A stretch of DNA of 64,000 nucleotides from Candidatus Latescibacterota bacterium (lineage in GTDB: Bacteria; Latescibacterota; UBA2968; UBA8231), in the NCBI GenBank assembly GCA_965203175.1, contig OZ241867.1:2240001-2304000 (forward strand), read 5' to 3'. This document shows, in pieces, positions 29,683 through 37,525 of this stretch. The notes under the pieces are model-generated. The model made no database searches. It was not told the origin of the DNA and was given only the letters and a program-made list of their open reading frames with translations. The stretch's first letter is position 1. Every line of letters starts with the position of its first letter. The translations under genes were made by a program, and so were the position numbers.

Positions 29683-29757
29683 GGGTTGCTCCTAGTTTGC
29701 AGGTTTGAAAAGTTGCGGCGAAGATAAGCCAAACAGATTCCGACAACCAGCCGTTGC

Positions 29758-30186
29758 TCAGCCATCGGCTTGTACACCCAAACCGTGTATATAGACCAAT
29801 TCGCTGCCGCAGTAGCCCGTCCACAAAACCAAGCCGCCGATCAGGACGCCGATCCCGATCCACGCATAGAGTGGCCATCCTTCGAGCCGCCCCTTGAGAT
29901 GCAATGGCAAGCGCCCGAGGACGGCTCCTAATCCCAACAGCAAGGTCCAAGTGGCGAGGGATTCGTGGGTGGCTAACGGCTCAGCGGCCGGCCCATCCCA
30001 AGCCTTGTCCGCGGCTGCGTTGCCGCTGAGGACGGCGGCGGTCGCCGCTAGTACGCCCAACACCAGCAAGCCGTACGCTAGGTGGTGTCCAGCGCGGCGA
30101 CCCAGCCACAGCGCGCCTAGATCGCATAGCGGGCTCAGCGACAAGAGGGCGATGGGGTAGTGGACGATGAAGGGATGCCAATCCAT
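29758..30186 (-). CDS. DUF2231-type membrane protein
   Basis: HPFIVHYPIAL ... HE ... TGYCGSELVYIHGLGV. Confidence 0.85.
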   Translation of the reverse strand: MDWHPFIVHYPIALLSLSPLCDLGALWLGRRAGHHLAYGLLVLGVLAATAAVLSGNAAADKAWDGPAAEPLATHESLATWTLLLGLGAVLGRLPLHLKGRLEGWPLYAWIGIGVLIGGLVLWTGYCGSELVYIHGLGVQADG

Positions 30187-30267
30187 ATTGTATTGTTATT
30201 GTTAATGAAACTTGGGATTGTTAATGAAGCGTTGGGAACGCGACACCTCAAACCGGAGCAATGCCCC

Positions 30268-31563
30268 ATGGCCACGGATCTGTCTCAACACATCGAAGAC
30301 ACGCTGCTAATTGACACGCACGAACACCTGCGCAAGGAGCGCGACTGGGTCGAGAACGGCCCGGACATTTTGCAAGACCTTTTTGGCAACTACGTGCCCG
30401 CCGATCTGATCGCCGCTGGCGCTATCCCCGAGGATCTACACAAGCTCAACGACGCCTCTGACCCAGATTTGGGAGCGCGCTTTGACGGCATCCGCTCGGC
30501 CTTTGCAGCCATCCGCTTCACTGGTTACGGCGAGGCCGTGCGCATCCTCGCGCACGAGATCTATGGCATGGCCGATTTTGGCGAAGACGAGCTGTACAAG
30601 GCGCAAGAGAAGCTCAGCGCTTGGCGTCAACCCGGCGGGCGGCACGAGCTGCTCAGCCAAATAGGCCGGCTGGACCACGTGCAGACCGACGACTTTTCTT
30701 GGCCCTGCCTGCCCGACGAGTCCGGCGTGGATTTTTTCCTCTACGACTTGTCTTGGGCCGCCTTTTGCAACGGTCAAATCGACGCCGAGGCCATTGAGCG
30801 CGAAACCGGCGTGGCCGTCACCGACTTGGCTAGCCTCAAGCAGGGCATGGAAGCCATCTTTGCCGAGCACGGCCCCCATGCCATAGCGGTCAAAGCCCAG
30901 CACGCGTACAACCGCACGCTACGCTGGGAAGAGCGCGCCGACGCCGACGCCGAGCGCGTGCTCCAACGCCTGCTCCAAGGCGCGGAACTCGATGAGCCGA
31001 GTCGGTTGCTGTTGGGCGACTGGTGCTGGGCGCGGGGGACCGAACTGGCGATTGAATACGAGTTGCCGTTCAAGATCCACACGGGCTACTACGCTGGCAA
31101 CGACCGCATGCCCGTTGACCGCATCAAAAGCGGCAACCTCTGCCCCTTGCTGGCCCGCTACCTCGATTGCCGCTTTGTGCTGATGCACATTGCCTATCCC
31201 TATTCCAACGAATTGGTCGCGCTGACCAAGCACTATCGCAACGTGTACGCCGACCTCTGCTGGGCGTGGTCCATTGATCCGTACAGCTCGTGCGACTTTG
31301 TGCGCCGCTTTATCCACGCGGCTCCCGCGTCCAAGCTCTTCGCCTTTGGCGGTGATACTGGCTGGCCGACCAGTTCGGTGGCCTATGCGATTCAGGCGCG
31401 GCGCTGGCTCACCCGCGCTCTCCAAGGCGAGATAGACGACGGCCTGCTGACCGAGGCCGAGGCCATAGAGTTGGCGACCCGCTTTATGCGCGGCAACCAA
31501 GAGGCCTGTTTCGACTTGGCTGGGACGCGGCAGGCGCTGCGCCGGTCGCTTTCAGCCGCTTAG
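30268..31563 (+). CDS. Amidohydrolase family protein
   Basis: IDTHEH, FKIHTG, FVLMH, FGGD. Confidence 0.88.
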   Translation: MATDLSQHIEDTLLIDTHEHLRKERDWVENGPDILQDLFGNYVPADLIAAGAIPEDLHKLNDASDPDLGARFDGIRSAFAAIRFTGYGEAVRILAHEIYGMADFGEDELYKAQEKLSAWRQPGGRHELLSQIGRLDHVQTDDFSWPCLPDESGVDFFLYDLSWAAFCNGQIDAEAIERETGVAVTDLASLKQGMEAIFAEHGPHAIAVKAQHAYNRTLRWEERADADAERVLQRLLQGAELDEPSRLLLGDWCWARGTELAIEYELPFKIHTGYYAGNDRMPVDRIKSGNLCPLLARYLDCRFVLMHIAYPYSNELVALTKHYRNVYADLCWAWSIDPYSSCDFVRRFIHAAPASKLFAFGGDTGWPTSSVAYAIQARRWLTRALQGEIDDGLLTEAEAIELATRFMRGNQEACFDLAGTRQALRRSLSAA

Positions 31564-33417: not shown

Positions 33418-33923
33418 CTACGGCCCTTCACCATTGGTTTCTTCTTCACCAGCTAGTGCGAGTACGCGACGCCGGATTCCATCCGACAGCCACATGCCGG
33501 TGCTTTCTAGCAAATCCACGTGAGGGGCAATGCGTTCGACCAAACCTTGCGATTTCGCTTCGATGAGGATTTTCAGCGTTCCCCACACATTGAGCTCGGC
33601 GGCCTGTGCGATACGCCGTGCCTGCCTGTCGTCCAGTAGAACGGTGCATTCAGGATGCTCTAACGCCAAAGCCAGTACGGCCAATTCTCCCACCCCTAAA
33701 TCCAGATTCAACCATTCGGGCGGAATGACGCGAGGGTCAACGATCTTGAGCCACTCGTAGCCTTGCGGATCGGGAACGTCGTATCCCCTTTGTCGTCCTT
33801 CCGACAATTCTTGCGCCACGGCTTGGGGGATCTGGACTTCATTGCACAGAATGGGCAGCCAACTTAGGGCGTCGATACGATGAAGATACAGCAGCGCAGA
33901 GTGTTGCTGATGAACTCAGACAT
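33418..33923 (-). pseudogene. DUF3368 PIN-domain toxin with a 1-nt frameshift near codon 8
   Basis: ATG 33923 gives MSEFISNT, then a shifted frame reads SALLYLHRID...IPQAVAQEL...LGVGELAVLALA...LLDDRQARRIA...GTLKIL. Confidence 0.8.
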
Positions 33924-34167
33924 GCTCGCGTTCTAGATCATTCAACTCCGTCTCAAGTGGAAAGACCTTGTAGCGATCAAGCGTCAACAGAAATTCCACG
34001 CGTGCCATCCCGGCAAGCTCCGCAGCCCGGCCAGACGAAAGACGGCCAAGTTCGTAGAGCTTGACTGCGGCTAGCATACGGAGTTCACGTGCAAAAGCGC
34101 GCTCGTCGGTCTTCTCGGCTAGCAGTACGCTCTCTGGAACATCGATTGCGATTTTCCGCGTAGTCAT
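33916..34167 (-). CDS. UPF0175 family antitoxin
   Basis: AVKLYELGRLSSGRAAELAGMARVEFL; overlaps the DUF3368 start. Confidence 0.9.
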   Translation of the reverse strand: MTTRKIAIDVPESVLLAEKTDERAFARELRMLAAVKLYELGRLSSGRAAELAGMARVEFLLTLDRYKVFPLETELNDLEREHV

Positions 34168-34239
34168 TTCCCCTTGCTCCTTCGATCAACGGAGGCGAAC
34201 TGAGTCCACTTCATATATAACTGACGTTACGCGGCGACC

Positions 34240-34494
34240 CTACTCGTCGGCGTCTAACAGGTTGCTAAAGGCTTCGAGGCTGGGCACCTGTATAGCCGCC
34301 CGAAACAACTGCTTGAGGCGCTGCACATCTTCAATGGCTCCAATGCGAGCGGCCAACGGATCCGACGCGGCTAGCCCAAAGCGAATCTCTAACACGTCGA
34401 GCAGATATTCAACGGCGCGTTCTCTGCTGCCTTGCTCAATACCCTGCTCAAGGGCCTTTTCCGTGAAATACTGCACTACCGACGATTCGTACAT
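34240..34494 (-). CDS. Putative internally translated small protein (RpnS-like antitoxin), 84 aa
   Basis: In-frame GGAGGAG-ACC-ATG inside rpn (AEETM) gives MYESSVVQYFTEKALEQG... Confidence 0.55.
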   Translation of the reverse strand: MYESSVVQYFTEKALEQGIEQGSRERAVEYLLDVLEIRFGLAASDPLAARIGAIEDVQRLKQLFRAAIQVPSLEAFSNLLDADE

Positions 34495-35124
34495 GGTCTC
34501 CTCCGCGATGATGGTCATAATCGTTTCTAAGTTATACACCAACCCGCTCAAAATCGCAAGATCGGCCAAGTAATTCGCCTTGAGGGTTTCGTCCATAGGT
34601 ACTGCTTGCGCCCGGTTTACGCACTGGCGCAACCACTCCTCGGCCTCCACACCCGCTGGCTGCTGCATCAACGGTGCAAACGGAATCAAGCCCGAATGCC
34701 CTGCGTCGAGCATGCGTTGGCCGTCTAGTTCACTCAGCCGAATCACTTGGTATTGCACCAAGACGCGGAAGCCGGGCCGCTCTTGAAGATAGTACCCTAG
34801 ATCAGTTCGGCCGGCATCGGGACGCAGATAGATGACGCTGGAGTAGGTCGGCAGGCCGTAGCGCTCGATAAGGCGGCCGATGTAGCCGGCCATGCGCCGT
34901 GGCATGGCCGGATCGGTGCTATCGGTGGTTTGAAATTCGTGATGCACCAACGCCTCCTCGCTGTCGACGCGCACGCGGAGGAGGCTATCGGTGCGGCGGA
35001 CCGTAGGTTGCTCGGTATCGAGTACTTCGACGACTTCGATATCGTCACGCTGAAGGGCGAAGCGGGCGAAATCGGTGGGGTAGGTGTGGATGAGATGTTT
35101 GGCGATGGTATCGAATTCGGCCAT
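34240..35124 (-). CDS. Rpn family recombination-promoting nuclease / putative transposase (PD-(D/E)XK)
   Basis: FDTIAKHL, RRTDSLLRV, HHEFQT, MPRRMAGY, SVIYL, EQGIEQG, LEIRFG. Confidence 0.9.
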   Translation of the reverse strand: MAEFDTIAKHLIHTYPTDFARFALQRDDIEVVEVLDTEQPTVRRTDSLLRVRVDSEEALVHHEFQTTDSTDPAMPRRMAGYIGRLIERYGLPTYSSVIYLRPDAGRTDLGYYLQERPGFRVLVQYQVIRLSELDGQRMLDAGHSGLIPFAPLMQQPAGVEAEEWLRQCVNRAQAVPMDETLKANYLADLAILSGLVYNLETIMTIIAEETMYESSVVQYFTEKALEQGIEQGSRERAVEYLLDVLEIRFGLAASDPLAARIGAIEDVQRLKQLFRAAIQVPSLEAFSNLLDADE

Positions 35125-35166
35125 AAGCCCTGCCTTGAGTTGCGGGTGAGGTGGTATCCGCAACGG

Positions 35167-35181
35167 GCAAGAATCGTGCCA
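35167..35181 (-). promoter_or_regulatory. Sigma54 -24/-12 promoter of rpn
   Basis: Minus strand TGGCACG-ATTC-TTGC, a perfect consensus, 42 bp upstream of the ATG. Confidence 0.75.
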
Positions 35182-35324
35182 CGGCGATGGCTCAGAGGGG
35201 CGGAGGGGATATGAGGCGTTGGAGTGTAGCGGAAAGGATACAGGGATGGAAAGTTGGGGACAAAAACTGCGTAACGTCAGTATATAACTAGCGCTTATTT
35301 ATGAGATAGCGTTCTAGTAACTCC

Positions 35325-36056
35325 CTACTGAAACAACTGTACCGTCGGCTTAATCACCAAGAGGGGCACGCAGGCGTGGGGTGGTAGCGCGGCGACGAAA
35401 AGCGCGGCTTGGGCCAGTTCTTCGGGTTGCAGCATGGTGGCCCGGCGTTCGGCGCTGACGGGTTCGGGTCGCTGGTCCAGAATCGGCGTCTCTACTTCGC
35501 CGGGGCAAATCGCGCAGGCGCGGATGCCGAAATCGACCTCTTCCTCGTTGATCGAGTTCGTCAGAGCCACCGCTCCGTGCTTGGAGGCCGAGTACGCAGC
35601 ACCGCCTAGCTTGCTGGCCCGCAGACCGGCGATGGACGAAATGGTGATGATGAGGCCGTCGTTTTGTTGCCGCATTCCCGGCAGCACCGCCCGCACCATG
35701 TTGTACACTCCGGTAAGATTGATGGCAATGGTCTGGTCCCAGTCCTCGGGTGCCACGTCGCCGACCGCGCGCGGATTGGTGTTGATGCCAGCGTTGTTGA
35801 CTAGCACATCGACGGCACCCCACTCGGCCGCGACAGCGGACGCTAAGGCCTCGACAGCGCTGCGGTCGGATACGTCGCAGGAGTGGAGCATGATCCGATC
35901 GGCATTGAGACCGGCGGCCGCGGCGGCGAGCGGCTCGGGGCGTCGCCCGACGAACGCCACCCGCGCTCCTGCGTCGGCAAAACCGCGCGCTATGCCTGCG
36001 CCGATCCCCGTGCCCGCGCCGGTGACTATCACAACTTTATCGACGAATTGCCGCAT
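35325..36056 (-). CDS. Short-chain dehydrogenase/reductase
   Basis: VTGAGTGIG, LVNNAG, YSASK. Confidence 0.95.
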   Translation of the reverse strand: MRQFVDKVVIVTGAGTGIGAGIARGFADAGARVAFVGRRPEPLAAAAAGLNADRIMLHSCDVSDRSAVEALASAVAAEWGAVDVLVNNAGINTNPRAVGDVAPEDWDQTIAINLTGVYNMVRAVLPGMRQQNDGLIITISSIAGLRASKLGGAAYSASKHGAVALTNSINEEEVDFGIRACAICPGEVETPILDQRPEPVSAERRATMLQPEELAQAALFVAALPPHACVPLLVIKPTVQLFQ

Positions 36057-37525
36057 TATTCCGCTTCCTTTTTGAGTGCCTGTAAGCGCGGGAATTCCTC
36101 GCGCTCCTTGTAAAACGAGTCGAGGGGAAAGCAACCGGAAATCATGCCGTTGCGCGGCGCGGTCGTGCAATCGGAAAACGTGCGGCAGATGACGCGGCGT
36201 TGCATTTGACCCGTTTGCAACACGTCACAGGGCAGGTCGGGATAGGACAGAACCATCCGCCCCAAGCCGATAAAATCTACCATGTCCGCCCGCACGAGGG
36301 CTTGACCCACATGCGGCAGATACTCCTGCAAGTAGGAATAACCCGACCCGACGAATAGGCTGCGCGGAAAGCGCGCCTTGAGCCGGGCGACCATCGCCAC
36401 TTGCCGCGCCACCCCGCACAGCGGGTCTTCCGGCGGCAGGTATCCATCGGAAGGGGGAAAGAGCGCCGGCCGCTGGATGTGCGGATTGTAATAAGGGCTG
36501 CCGCAGGACAAGTTAATCAGGTCCACGCCTAGGCTCTCCAACAAGGCGATGAACTGCTCGGCCTCACCTAAGTCCATTTGCCGAGGGTCGTCTTGGTCAA
36601 TTCCAAAGCCGTACTCGTAGGGCAGGCAGTTTTGGTACGGCTCGGGCACTCCATGCCCCGGCTTGCCGTTAATACTCGCGTCTGGGTCGGGCCGGAAGGG
36701 CACGAAGTCGAAGGCACTCAGCCGCACGCCAATGCCGAGCCCGGGTGCTCGGTTGCGGATCCCCTCGATGATGGAGCGGACAAAGCGCGTGCGATTGGCA
36801 AAGGAGCCGCCAAAGGGGCCGGGCCGCGTAAACGCGCTGAGGAATTCGTGCCCTAGGTAGCCGTGGCAATGCTTGATGTCCACGAAGTGATAACCCAGTT
36901 CATGGGCGATTTGCGCACCGATGACATAGCGGTTGATCAACTCTTCGATATAGGCGTCCGTCAAGAGCGGATAGTCTGCATCGAGGCCGAATTTGCGGTC
37001 CAAGATCGGGTGGTGATAGAGAATGGCCGGCGCGGATTGGTCCTTGCGCCAGGGACGGCAAAACCGCCCCGAATGCGTCAGTTGCAATCCGAGGAGCAGG
37101 TCGTCGGTGGTGCCGAACCGCTCGTCGTGCGCCGACAGGAGGATGTCGCGCAGTTCGGCCATGCCGGTGCGGTTTTCCTCTCGCGCCATGAGCTGGTTCG
37201 GGTTGGCACGGCCCTCGGGCACCACGGCAAATGCCTCTCCACCCCAGATGAGCTTGGCCCCGCTGCGCCCGAAATTTAGCCAGCGCCGACGCGTCAAATC
37301 GCCCGGCTGGCCATCTTCAGTCCCATCCCACCCTTCCATAGGCTGAATGGCAAAGCGATTGCCGATGCGATTGCCGCCGCTGTGGGCCGCTTGGGCCAGC
37401 GGGGAAGTGGGAGCGGTTTCGATTCGGTCGTCGCAGGGCAATTCCGCGCCCAAATGGGCCAGATGGGCGCGGAAGTCCGCGGCCTGCTTAAAGCTGGAGA
37501 TGCGCGGATAGCGCGTCTTGGCCAT
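36056..37525 (-). CDS. NADH:flavin oxidoreductase (Old Yellow Enzyme family)
   Basis: NRFAIQPMEG, LQLTHSGR, DIKHCHGYL, GGSFANRTRF. Confidence 0.9.
   Translation of the reverse strand: MAKTRYPRISSFKQAADFRAHLAHLGAELPCDDRIETAPTSPLAQAAHSGGNRIGNRFAIQPMEGWDGTEDGQPGDLTRRRWLNFGRSGAKLIWGGEAFAVVPEGRANPNQLMAREENRTGMAELRDILLSAHDERFGTTDDLLLGLQLTHSGRFCRPWRKDQSAPAILYHHPILDRKFGLDADYPLLTDAYIEELINRYVIGAQIAHELGYHFVDIKHCHGYLGHEFLSAFTRPGPFGGSFANRTRFVRSIIEGIRNRAPGLGIGVRLSAFDFVPFRPDPDASINGKPGHGVPEPYQNCLPYEYGFGIDQDDPRQMDLGEAEQFIALLESLGVDLINLSCGSPYYNPHIQRPALFPPSDGYLPPEDPLCGVARQVAMVARLKARFPRSLFVGSGYSYLQEYLPHVGQALVRADMVDFIGLGRMVLSYPDLPCDVLQTGQMQRRVICRTFSDCTTAPRNGMISGCFPLDSFYKEREEFPRLQALKKEAE

Follow-up and report, generated by a model that had tools for sequence, protein, structure and literature searches.

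The locus described here raises the question of whether a nuclease of the restriction-endonuclease type can be the enzyme that moves the transposon-type element in which its gene resides. The window analysed (the whole stretch of 64,000 nucleotides, positions 2,240,001 to 2,304,000 of contig OZ241867.1 from a Candidatus Latescibacterota bacterium, assembly GCA_965203175.1) contains, at positions 34221–35280, a unit of 1,060 bp with a single plausible gene, which encodes an Rpn-like nuclease. The initial annotation described this gene as the sole cargo of an element bounded by terminal inverted repeats and a target-site duplication. The parts of the unit, in window coordinates, are as follows.

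34214..34220, no strand: left 7-bp target-site duplication, TATATAA on the plus strand and TTATATA in gene orientation; the same 7-mer occurs again at 35281–35287
34221..34232, plus strand: terminal inverted repeat next to the gene's 3′ end, CTGACGTTACGC; homology among the five copies in the genome stops exactly here
34240..35124, minus strand: Rpn-like PD-(D/E)XK nuclease gene, 294 residues from its ATG, the frame being open to a TTG at 35163 (from the reading frame, a structural model and an alignment)
34240..34494, minus strand: predicted in-frame internal reading frame for an RpnS-like product of 84 residues, with an ATG at residue 211 preceded by GGAGG (from conservation; translation inferred)
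34420..34449 (approximate, from residues 226–235), minus strand: tract of GIEQ/GIKQ-type tetrapeptide repeats (from comparison of copies)
35125..35268, minus strand: 5′ leader, non-coding and conserved, that separates the ATG from the inverted repeat (from majority-base frequency among copies)
35269..35280, minus strand: terminal inverted repeat next to the gene's 5′ end, reading GCGTAACGTCAG on the plus strand; homology boundary among the five copies
35281..35287, no strand: right 7-bp target-site duplication, TATATAA (from the window sequence)

Read on the plus strand, the layout is TATATAA, CTGACGTTACGC, the interior, GCGTAACGTCAG and TATATAA, and both 7-mers and both 12-mers are found where they had been reported. 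The inverted repeat is perfect over 12 bp, mismatched at position 13 and matched again at position 14. An inverted repeat extending into the adjoining TAA/TTA was considered and rejected, since the palindromic target TTANTAA (see below) accounts for those bases. The only long open reading frame filling the unit is that at 34240–35163 on the minus strand, or 34240–35124 if read from the ATG; the shorter overlapping frames are mechanical. The description of the Rpn-like gene as sole cargo is thus confirmed. The two unit ends are also the only matches to the 12-mer in the window when one mismatch is allowed (0.33 expected); two or more matches arise in 3 of 100 shuffles, and the statistics of the window by itself are therefore only suggestive.

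The boundaries of the unit are defined by comparison with its relatives. In the one-contig genome (6,579,469 bp, 59% G+C), the exact 12-mer occurs 13 times, where about 0.8 would be expected by our own arithmetic, and a tblastn search recovered five copies of the gene with 66–100% amino-acid identity. When these five copies were aligned with 400 bp of flanking DNA, they were homologous from CTGACGTTACGCAG to GCGTAACGTCAG and unrelated outside, with nucleotide identities of 76–89% between full-length units. The flanking repeats in gene orientation are TTATATA for the window copy, TTACTAA for copy B, TTATGAA for copy E and the 8-bp TTATCTAA for copy C, while that of copy A has decayed (TTAAAAA/TCAAAAG). 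Across the genus, many units of about 1.05–1.1 kb are found per genome, with 70–89% nucleotide identity; in five of the 31 genus genomes (G015, G016, G017, G018 and G024) the element query had no match. The family is characterized by one gene, a length of about 1.05–1.1 kb, inverted ends of 12–15 bp (CTGACGTTACGCAGT) and a duplication of 7 bp, sometimes 8 bp, at TTANTAA. The stretch is present in public runs from sponge or marine metagenomes, and the taxon names carried by close homologues of the protein point to Gemmatimonadota.

Target-site duplications were assessed in a set of 65 loci, of which other species contributed 60 and this genome five. In 34 of these, both ends are recognizable (three mismatches or fewer each), and removal of copies that share flanks, as orthologues or duplicates, left 24 independent full-length copies; locus L020, which has a perfect duplication, was among the copies dropped. 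As a control, the left flank of one locus was compared with the right flank of another (552 pairs). A perfect 7-bp duplication is present in 5 of the 24 copies (1 of 552 control pairs) and a perfect 8-bp duplication in a further 2 (none of 552), giving 7 of 24 with a perfect duplication of either length. Matches of at least six of seven positions occur in 7 of 24 copies against 22 of 552 control pairs. The lack of a perfect duplication in the other 17 copies is as expected of old insertions, and it also limits the strength of this evidence.

Pairs of filled and empty sites were also obtained. At one site, genome G012 reads CTGAT, TTATTCA, the element, TTATTCA and CTATTGACATTCCA, whereas G022, G013 and G011 read CTGAT, a single TTATTCA and CTATCAACACTCCA, with the right flank as in G012. 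Empty sites thus exist for this full-length copy, and for a miniature relative described below. The initial annotation had suggested looking for an empty-site allele of the window copy; a comparison of the homologous spot in 40 relatives, where that spot is variable, revealed none. G011 has both flanks with 77–79 bp of other DNA between them; a shorter spacer is present in G022 (read directly) and in G001, G023 and G021 (by alignment coordinates), and other relatives carry different genes. The contigs of four public runs were searched for the same empty site. A joint of position 34194 to position 35282, seen in one contig each of X1 and X3 with unresolved sequence between, was rejected as a clean empty site; it belongs to a variant of about 90% identity, most likely a G011-like allele. 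A metagenome scan with a 17-mer from the right flank returned only 20 unrelated chance matches. Copies C and B lie in variable segments from which no clean empty site was obtained, and for an insertion common to G002 (L028) and G013 (L027), the corresponding intergenic DNA of this genome is too diverged to call. The insertion polymorphism between species indicates that the system was active after the species split.

Several copies have unusual surroundings. In L022 (G023:C1:7193700-7197190, positions 1197–2285), TAACTAA comes after a solo 3′ end and is repeated on the far side of a full unit, an arrangement that may represent either a tandem or a unit inserted next to an older remnant; copies also lie side by side in G043 (3911353–3915610) and G045 (2011858–2014187). 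Adjoining copy B, a segment of 454 bp (L013:1-454, G000:852070-852523) is 100% identical to G010:50241-50694 and 99% identical to G020. The usual flank identity between those species is about 90–93%, and this segment may be recently exchanged or very conserved.

Shorter relatives carry the same ends without the gene. A non-coding element of 103 bp at genome positions 2217043–2217145 has both ends and the duplication TTACTAC. Its empty sites are found in G010 and G044, where the flank alignments overlap by exactly 7 bp, with a single TTACTAC in G010. Of this miniature, 41 copies of 101–103 bp were examined, 40 of them in other genomes; all have recognizable ends, and 30 have perfect duplications, 26 of 7 bp and 4 of 8 bp, compared with 9 perfect 7-mers among 1,640 controls. 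The 26 seven-mers, of which 22 are distinct, give a consensus of T23 T17 A16 N T21 A19 A20, i.e. the palindrome TTANTAA, and are 80% A+T in a genome of 59% G+C. Being short, non-coding and multi-copy, with inverted ends, target duplications and empty sites, the 103-bp relative is a MITE (a miniature transposable element bounded by inverted repeats). It has 15 exact, and up to 23 near-exact, terminal nucleotides in common with the coding unit, and the interiors are unrelated; a derivation of the 103-bp element by simple internal deletion of the coding unit was considered, and is unsupported beyond these 15–23 terminal nucleotides. The CTGAYGTTACGC ends also bound a second miniature family, of about 135–146 bp and with a long hairpin in its interior (genome positions 1596473–1596617 and 3232291). 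The CTGAYGTTACGC pattern occurs at 124 sites in G013 and 39 in G011, compared with 2 and 1 sites for the reversed control pattern. In two genus-wide searches, the four or five genus genomes without a coding unit had no miniature element either, a weak observation in that these genomes form one clade.

The results above leave very little doubt that the unit in the window is a true element of the transposon type, one whose inverted ends are defined and whose target is duplicated.

The protein itself is a distant member of its supposed family. No Pfam family was found for it at E 0.001 or at E 10, nor any transposase Pfam domain above cut-off; TIGR01784 matched with E 0.02 at 14.7 bits, below its cut-off of 52.1 bits, and PF04754 had no match anywhere in the genome. 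Among 28 diverse homologues scanned at E 0.01, one matched PF04754, one PF12784 and three DUF4351. The homologue family comprises 2,072 cluster representatives at E ≤0.001, and the close homologues listed are mostly nameless, those with a name being called ‘hypothetical protein’. A tblastn search of plasmids returned 21 cyanobacterial records, all below 60% identity; the 15 listed are 28–33% identical over 83–98% of the query (best E 6e-23), and these 15 are annotated as ‘Rpn family recombination-promoting nuclease/putative transposase’, as ‘DUF4351 domain-containing protein’ or, in one case, as hypothetical. The ‘Rpn’ label of the initial annotation thus stands in the sense of a distant Rpn-like protein and fails as a curated family call.

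In the 28 diverse homologues, D5, D46 and E63 are invariant and Q65 is nearly so. A weak hhalign alignment with E. coli RpnA (E 0.0026, probability 11.6%) pairs D46 with D63, E63 with E82, Q65 with Q84 and R77 with R94, and D5 would correspond to RpnA D11 by position and conservation only. According to the available part of the report on RpnA, its activity needs these residues (D63, E82, Q84 in place of the lysine, and R94) (PMC5350276). The AlphaFold model (predicted local distance difference test score, pLDDT, 90.5) has an N-terminal PD-(D/E)XK domain followed by helices. Residues 1–133 match the structure of NucS (2vld; Z 9.4, root-mean-square deviation 2.8, 101 aligned residues), with further matches to VC1899, Can2, Card1 and several restriction enzymes (Z 5.4–7.8 for Can2, Card1 and the restriction enzymes). 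A Foldseek search with the full model gave no match at E 0.001, its weak rows including XisH and EndoMS, and a family profile searched against PDB sequences gave nothing below E 0.2. The protein looks like an active nuclease.

The C-terminal part contains the repeat tract, whose length varies by up to four 4-residue units among 16 copies, even among the orthologous copies E, L019 and L021. An internal ATG near residue 212, with GGAG 6–11 nt upstream, is present in 15 of the 16 copies, and would give a product of 80–96 residues in which the repeats start about 15 residues in. The model of the 84-residue part has a pLDDT of 80.2; Foldseek found no significant PDB match for it, and RpnA-S (7th0) was not among the rows returned. 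The internal-start layout matches that of RpnL/RpnS and predicts a small product.

Upstream of the gene, the 144-nt leader is strongly conserved, with a majority-base frequency of 0.90–0.92, compared with 0.84 for third codon positions and 0.93 for first and second positions. The initial annotation had placed the gene together with its promoter inside the unit. The gene is there, whereas a promoter and terminator scan of the unit found no sigma-70 consensus site, conserved as the leader is. No Rfam match was found for the unit, leader included. The leader may hold a promoter of another type, binding sites or an RNA.

The history of the copies was traced through other species. The window copy is also present in G041, where the 1,551-bp locus including flanks aligns end to end with 94.0% identity; being common to a second species together with its flanks, it is an old insertion. 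Copy E is likewise present in G022 and G012. The reading frame is intact in 16 of 17 copies, and the ratio of nonsynonymous to synonymous divergence (dN/dS) is 0.15–0.35 in all 21 pairs tested, orthologues included.

The initial annotation suggested that a DDE transposase with the same ends might be found elsewhere, and that all pairs of ends be listed with their cargo and flanks. Such a search was carried out in three genomes, this one, G011 and G013. Each of the 13 sites in this genome could be assigned: the five coding units hold seven, mini-elements two and a remnant of the second miniature family one, and the last three are solo ends, whose neighbours are a beta-propeller protein, a 728-residue protein and a putative nucleotidyltransferase regulator (identified by eye from the translation). 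For G011 and G013, 139 of 163 sites were listed, 24 lying outside the listing. The listed sites form 40 adjacent inverted pairs, of which two span less than 60 bp, 14 span 90–115 bp, 22 span 116–200 bp, one spans 1,037 bp and is an Rpn-like coding unit, and one spans 4,121 bp. The last of these contains a protein with leucine-rich repeats, fibronectin type III and leishmanolysin-like domains, together with an Rpn-like unit, and no transposase. The protein, of 582 residues (L240:295-2043, G013), lies beside the Rpn-like unit; such eukaryote-like proteins are often reported in sponge symbionts. Apart from the protein in the 4,121-bp pair, the Rpn-like gene was the only gene class found between such ends in the three genomes, and no DDE transposase appeared, either at the 13 sites of this genome or flanking the 139 listed sites of the other two. 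When up to two mismatches were allowed, the end pairs in this genome were chance-like apart from the Rpn-like units; one pair, of 3.5 kb, enclosed a methyltransferase and a DUF4962 protein and was set aside.

DDE transposases are nevertheless numerous; in five genomes, each has 19–61 PF01609, 0–7 rve and 0–17 DDE_3 matches. In this genome, the boundaries of three DDE insertion sequences with several copies could be set, and their ends (GGCGTTGTTGCATGAA, AGAAGCCGTCTGAAAAC and TGGCCTGCCCCC) are unrelated to those of the unit. Since the sites, the pairs and the DDE ends examined show none, no parent element with the unit's ends was found in the three genomes. The DDE elements comprise about 15 copies of 1,160 bp, three of 933 bp and six of a 1,231-bp IS3-like element (e.g. 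genome positions 29745–30302, 396551–397024 and 1801366–1801653, outside the window).

Outside the genus, the association between protein and ends becomes looser. Among homologues of about 60% identity in another family of the class, 4 of 10 loci retain TGAYRTTACGCAAG at the 5′ end, with a more degenerate form in two more. In these sister-family loci, TGAYRTTACGCAAG tops a longer leader, and a weaker inverted match overlaps the stop codon. In one sister-family genome (L044, G029:C1:1143000-1145400), the Rpn-like unit lies between direct repeats of about 75 bp that derive from the 3′ end of a host gene, unlike the 7-bp duplications of the genus. More distant homologues are found in Poribacteria, with at least 20 loci in one 4.25-Mb genome (OZ242325.1, L221–L238; relatives of P0142). 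Each of the 16 poribacterial loci that were aligned is preceded by a perfect TTGACA-17-TATAAT promoter, and their outer ends vary. Because these homologues vary at their ends with no inverted repeat seen, defined ends are not a universal companion of the protein; they are a feature of the lineage rather than of the whole family. The variable ends in Poribacteria agree with what the available part of Zhong et al. reports of rpn genes generally (PMC10400941).

What moves the unit has still to be weighed. That nothing does, the 12-mer being a regulatory or recombination palindrome and the flanking 7-mers chance matches in A+T-rich intergenic DNA, is scarcely credible: the flanks are indeed A+T-rich and of low complexity, and the window-only statistics are weak, but precise pairs of filled and empty sites exist, the duplications are far above controls, and the 7-mers duplicated by the 103-bp element differ from site to site. 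The initial annotation offered two alternatives, an autonomous element and one moved in trans, which are the right pair to weigh, although the evidence does not settle between them. The reading that we favour, at about even odds, is that the element is autonomous, with the Rpn-like nuclease as its transposase. The unit would then be an autonomous insertion sequence with a restriction-fold transposase, which would recognize both the ends and the symmetric target and move the full-length units as well as the 103-bp and ~135–146-bp miniatures. A dimer of the nuclease would cut the target with a 7-nt stagger, gap filling would produce the duplication, and joining would be carried out by the enzyme itself or by host repair. 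The internal RpnS-like product of 80–96 residues may restrain the full-length nuclease, as antitoxin and transposition inhibitor in one, like the Tn5 inhibitor protein. Autonomy is supported by the Rpn-like gene being the sole cargo wherever examined, by the ends accompanying the protein into the sister family and by the absence of a parent element from the three genomes searched; a palindromic target suits a dimeric restriction-fold enzyme and is therefore counted on the same side. The defined ends, duplications, empty sites and miniature elements are also counted in its favour, as is a protein with the look of an active nuclease. Several points weigh against an autonomous element. The full-length copies are old, with synonymous divergence (dS) of 0.35–0.84 within the genome, and 17 of the 24 independent copies have no perfect duplication. 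There is no sign of recent movement of full-length units, since the copies are old and both the window copy and copy E are common to other species, and the copies of the DDE insertion sequences, at 94–100% identity, are far younger. Fixed orthologous loci are under purifying selection (dN/dS 0.19–0.35), which fits a gene useful to the host equally well. The check for other cargo covers three genomes, and in G011 and G013 the 139 listed sites. The poribacterial homologues, about 40% identical to the window protein, are multi-copy with variable ends and no inverted repeat seen, and five of the 16 aligned loci share an upstream segment resembling the 3′ end of what we take, from the motif, to be an IS1595-type transposase gene. 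To our knowledge, there is no autonomous transposase of the PD-(D/E)XK fold, and we know of no route by which a hydrolytic nuclease would achieve strand transfer. Finally, Zhong et al. (2023), in the part of their text available, deem it highly unlikely that Rpn proteins are transposases (PMC10400941).

Much of the same evidence would fit a passenger, or ‘mobile insertion cassette’, in which the ends belong to another transposon system whose transposase is elsewhere or lost, and a captured Rpn-like gene has spread as cargo beside the miniatures. We regard this as possible but rather doubtful. Passenger-only elements with borrowed ends are known, for example MIC231 of Bacillus cereus, and DDE transposases are abundant, with 19–61 PF01609 matches in each of the five genomes. 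Miniatures far outnumber coding units, as seen in the 36 of 40 listed end pairs in G011 and G013 that span 90–200 bp, and outside its terminal nucleotides the 103-bp element has no relation to the coding unit. The lack of such ends in the poribacterial homologues and the purifying selection on the gene at fixed loci point the same way, and the available part of Zhong et al. describes rpn genes as hitch-hikers that are not self-mobile (PMC10400941). However, no transposase gene accompanies these ends at the 13 sites of this genome, at the 139 listed sites of G011 and G013 or within the 4,121-bp pair, and the three bounded DDE elements end otherwise. In addition, the 5′ end motif persists with the protein in the sister family at about 60% identity, which disfavours chance capture, and the genus genomes that lack the coding unit lack the miniature element as well, weak as that point is for a single clade. 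An explanation compatible with either origin, and in our view improbable, is that of an element that transposed in the past by one of these routes and is now dead, its gene having been domesticated as a toxin–antitoxin system of the RpnL/RpnS type or as an anti-phage gene. The age of the copies, the orthologous insertions common to several species, the intact reading frames in 16 of 17 copies and the internal start signal kept in 15 of 16 would all be expected of such a gene, and the tetrapeptide repeat varies between orthologues, a variation that is read in Rpn proteins as phage selection in the available part of Zhong et al. (PMC10400941). Against an extinct element are the perfect duplications of 30 of the 41 miniature copies and the insertion polymorphism between species, which places activity after their split, and an anti-phage role finds no PADLOC match for the protein. 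On the autonomous reading, too, because the copies are old and under purifying selection, those in the genome today probably serve mainly as a toxin–antitoxin or defence-type gene.

The neighbours of the unit in the window, all outside the element, are as follows.

33418..33819, minus strand: DUF3368 protein, partner of the UPF0175 gene (PF11848; PADLOC candidate PDC-S70, E 1.1e-31)
33916..34167, minus strand: UPF0175 antitoxin-like gene (PF03683, E 2e-23; PADLOC candidate PDC-S70)
35325..36170, minus strand: short-chain dehydrogenase; the DNA just downstream of it, which holds the element, varies between species

The initial annotation had placed the unit in a defence island, a view that is not upheld. 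When 15 neighbouring proteins were compared with PADLOC, only the UPF0175/DUF3368 pair (33418–34167) matched a candidate system, PDC-S70 (E 1.1e-31 and 4.5e-07), and the Rpn-like protein itself had no match. The other neighbours with Pfam names are metabolic or envelope proteins, namely a sulfatase, oxidoreductases, Lgt, a lipid-related multidomain enzyme and Mla proteins. At the segments immediately beside the unit (34168–34220 and 35281–35324, compared with L002–L009), species carry the UPF0175/DUF3368 pair, putative ATPase genes (identified by eye) or other sequence. The locus is thus a small variable spot and not a defence island.

In several respects, the protein resembles E. coli RpnA–E and the plasmid protein RpnP2 (PMC5350276, PMC10400941). 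Its N-terminal domain is of the PD-(D/E)XK type and carries the D...D...ExQ...R residues, its length is similar (about 290–300 residues), and it is multi-copy with a patchy distribution. As described for Rpn proteins in the available part of Zhong et al., it has a helical C-terminal part with a four-residue repeat of varying length (GIEQ here, KGIE in RpnC) and an in-frame internal start that predicts a small C-terminal protein (PMC10400941). It differs from curated Rpn proteins in having no Pfam match and a TIGR01784 score below cut-off, and is 28–33% identical to the 15 listed cyanobacterial Rpn/DUF4351 proteins. The greater difference lies in the DNA. The initial annotation remarked that Rpn-type genes are not normally described with ends like those of insertion sequences, and Zhong et al. 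(2023) indeed state that rpn genes are without inverted repeats or target duplications (PMC10400941). The window family has inverted repeats, target duplications and miniature derivatives. Elsewhere, Rybarski et al. (2021) reported just 9-bp inverted repeats around multi-gene Cas12a–Rpn loci, in the part of the preprint available (bioRxiv 10.1101/2021.08.16.456562), and a Wolbachia paper labels a PDDEXK_2 gene as a transposase, with ‘inverted repeat’ and ‘target site’ absent from its text (PMC13439711). In a search of full-text literature, with ISfinder and supplementary files outside its scope, no Rpn-type unit of a single gene turned up that was described as having inverted ends, target duplications and miniatures.

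The unit resembles classical insertion sequences with MITEs in that one reading frame fills about 1 kb between short inverted repeats, with a duplication of fixed length (7, sometimes 8 bp), a target preference, and short non-coding derivatives that have the same ends and duplication length. In contrast to those elements, the reading frame does not encode a DDE, DEDD, HUH, serine or tyrosine enzyme, the predicted fold being that of restriction endonucleases, and the copies within the genome are 76–89% identical instead of near-identical. Mobile insertion cassettes such as MIC231 and elements with only TnpB or IscB also carry a non-transposase gene between transposon ends and are moved in trans; for them, the parent that has matching ends and encodes the transposase is known, whereas none was found for the window unit in the three genomes checked. 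In Tn5, the full-length enzyme is restrained by an inhibitor, a shorter product of the same gene translated from an internal in-frame start. The inhibitor lacks only a short N-terminal part of the DDE enzyme, while the predicted RpnS-like product would consist of only the C-terminal 80–96 residues of the nuclease. TnsA of Tn7, part of a large transposon, acts only in company with the DDE protein TnsB and other proteins, while here the nuclease is the only gene in the unit. TnsA is nonetheless a PD-(D/E)XK nuclease that takes part in the cutting of transposon ends. It is named in two papers on related subjects (PMC3424549, PMC10400941).

The window lineage supplies an anatomy that had been missing, with defined ends, 7-bp duplications at a palindrome, empty sites, amplified miniatures and the hallmarks of Rpn in the sole protein. 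For two decades, Rpn/YhgA-like proteins have been labelled ‘putative transposase’ without supporting transposon anatomy. We propose, tentatively and at slightly short of even confidence, that the unit represents the first autonomous bacterial insertion sequence with an enzyme of the restriction-endonuclease fold, having 12–15-bp ends, cutting with a 7-nt stagger at TTANTAA and restrained by its own internal C-terminal fragment, and that the many immobile Rpn/YhgA genes of other bacteria, at present interpreted as toxin–antitoxin defence genes, are domesticated descendants of such elements. If the nuclease does not move the unit, no clear case would precede this one of an Rpn-type gene that spreads as the cargo of a transposon-end cassette. 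If it does, transposases would gain a new catalytic class, and it would be explained how a widespread family of defence and toxin–antitoxin genes arose. Kingston et al. (2017), in the available part of their paper, suggested that Rpn proteins are eroded ancient mobile elements (PMC5350276); should the element prove autonomous, the immobile Rpn/YhgA genes would be domesticated descendants of elements of this kind, as those authors suspected.

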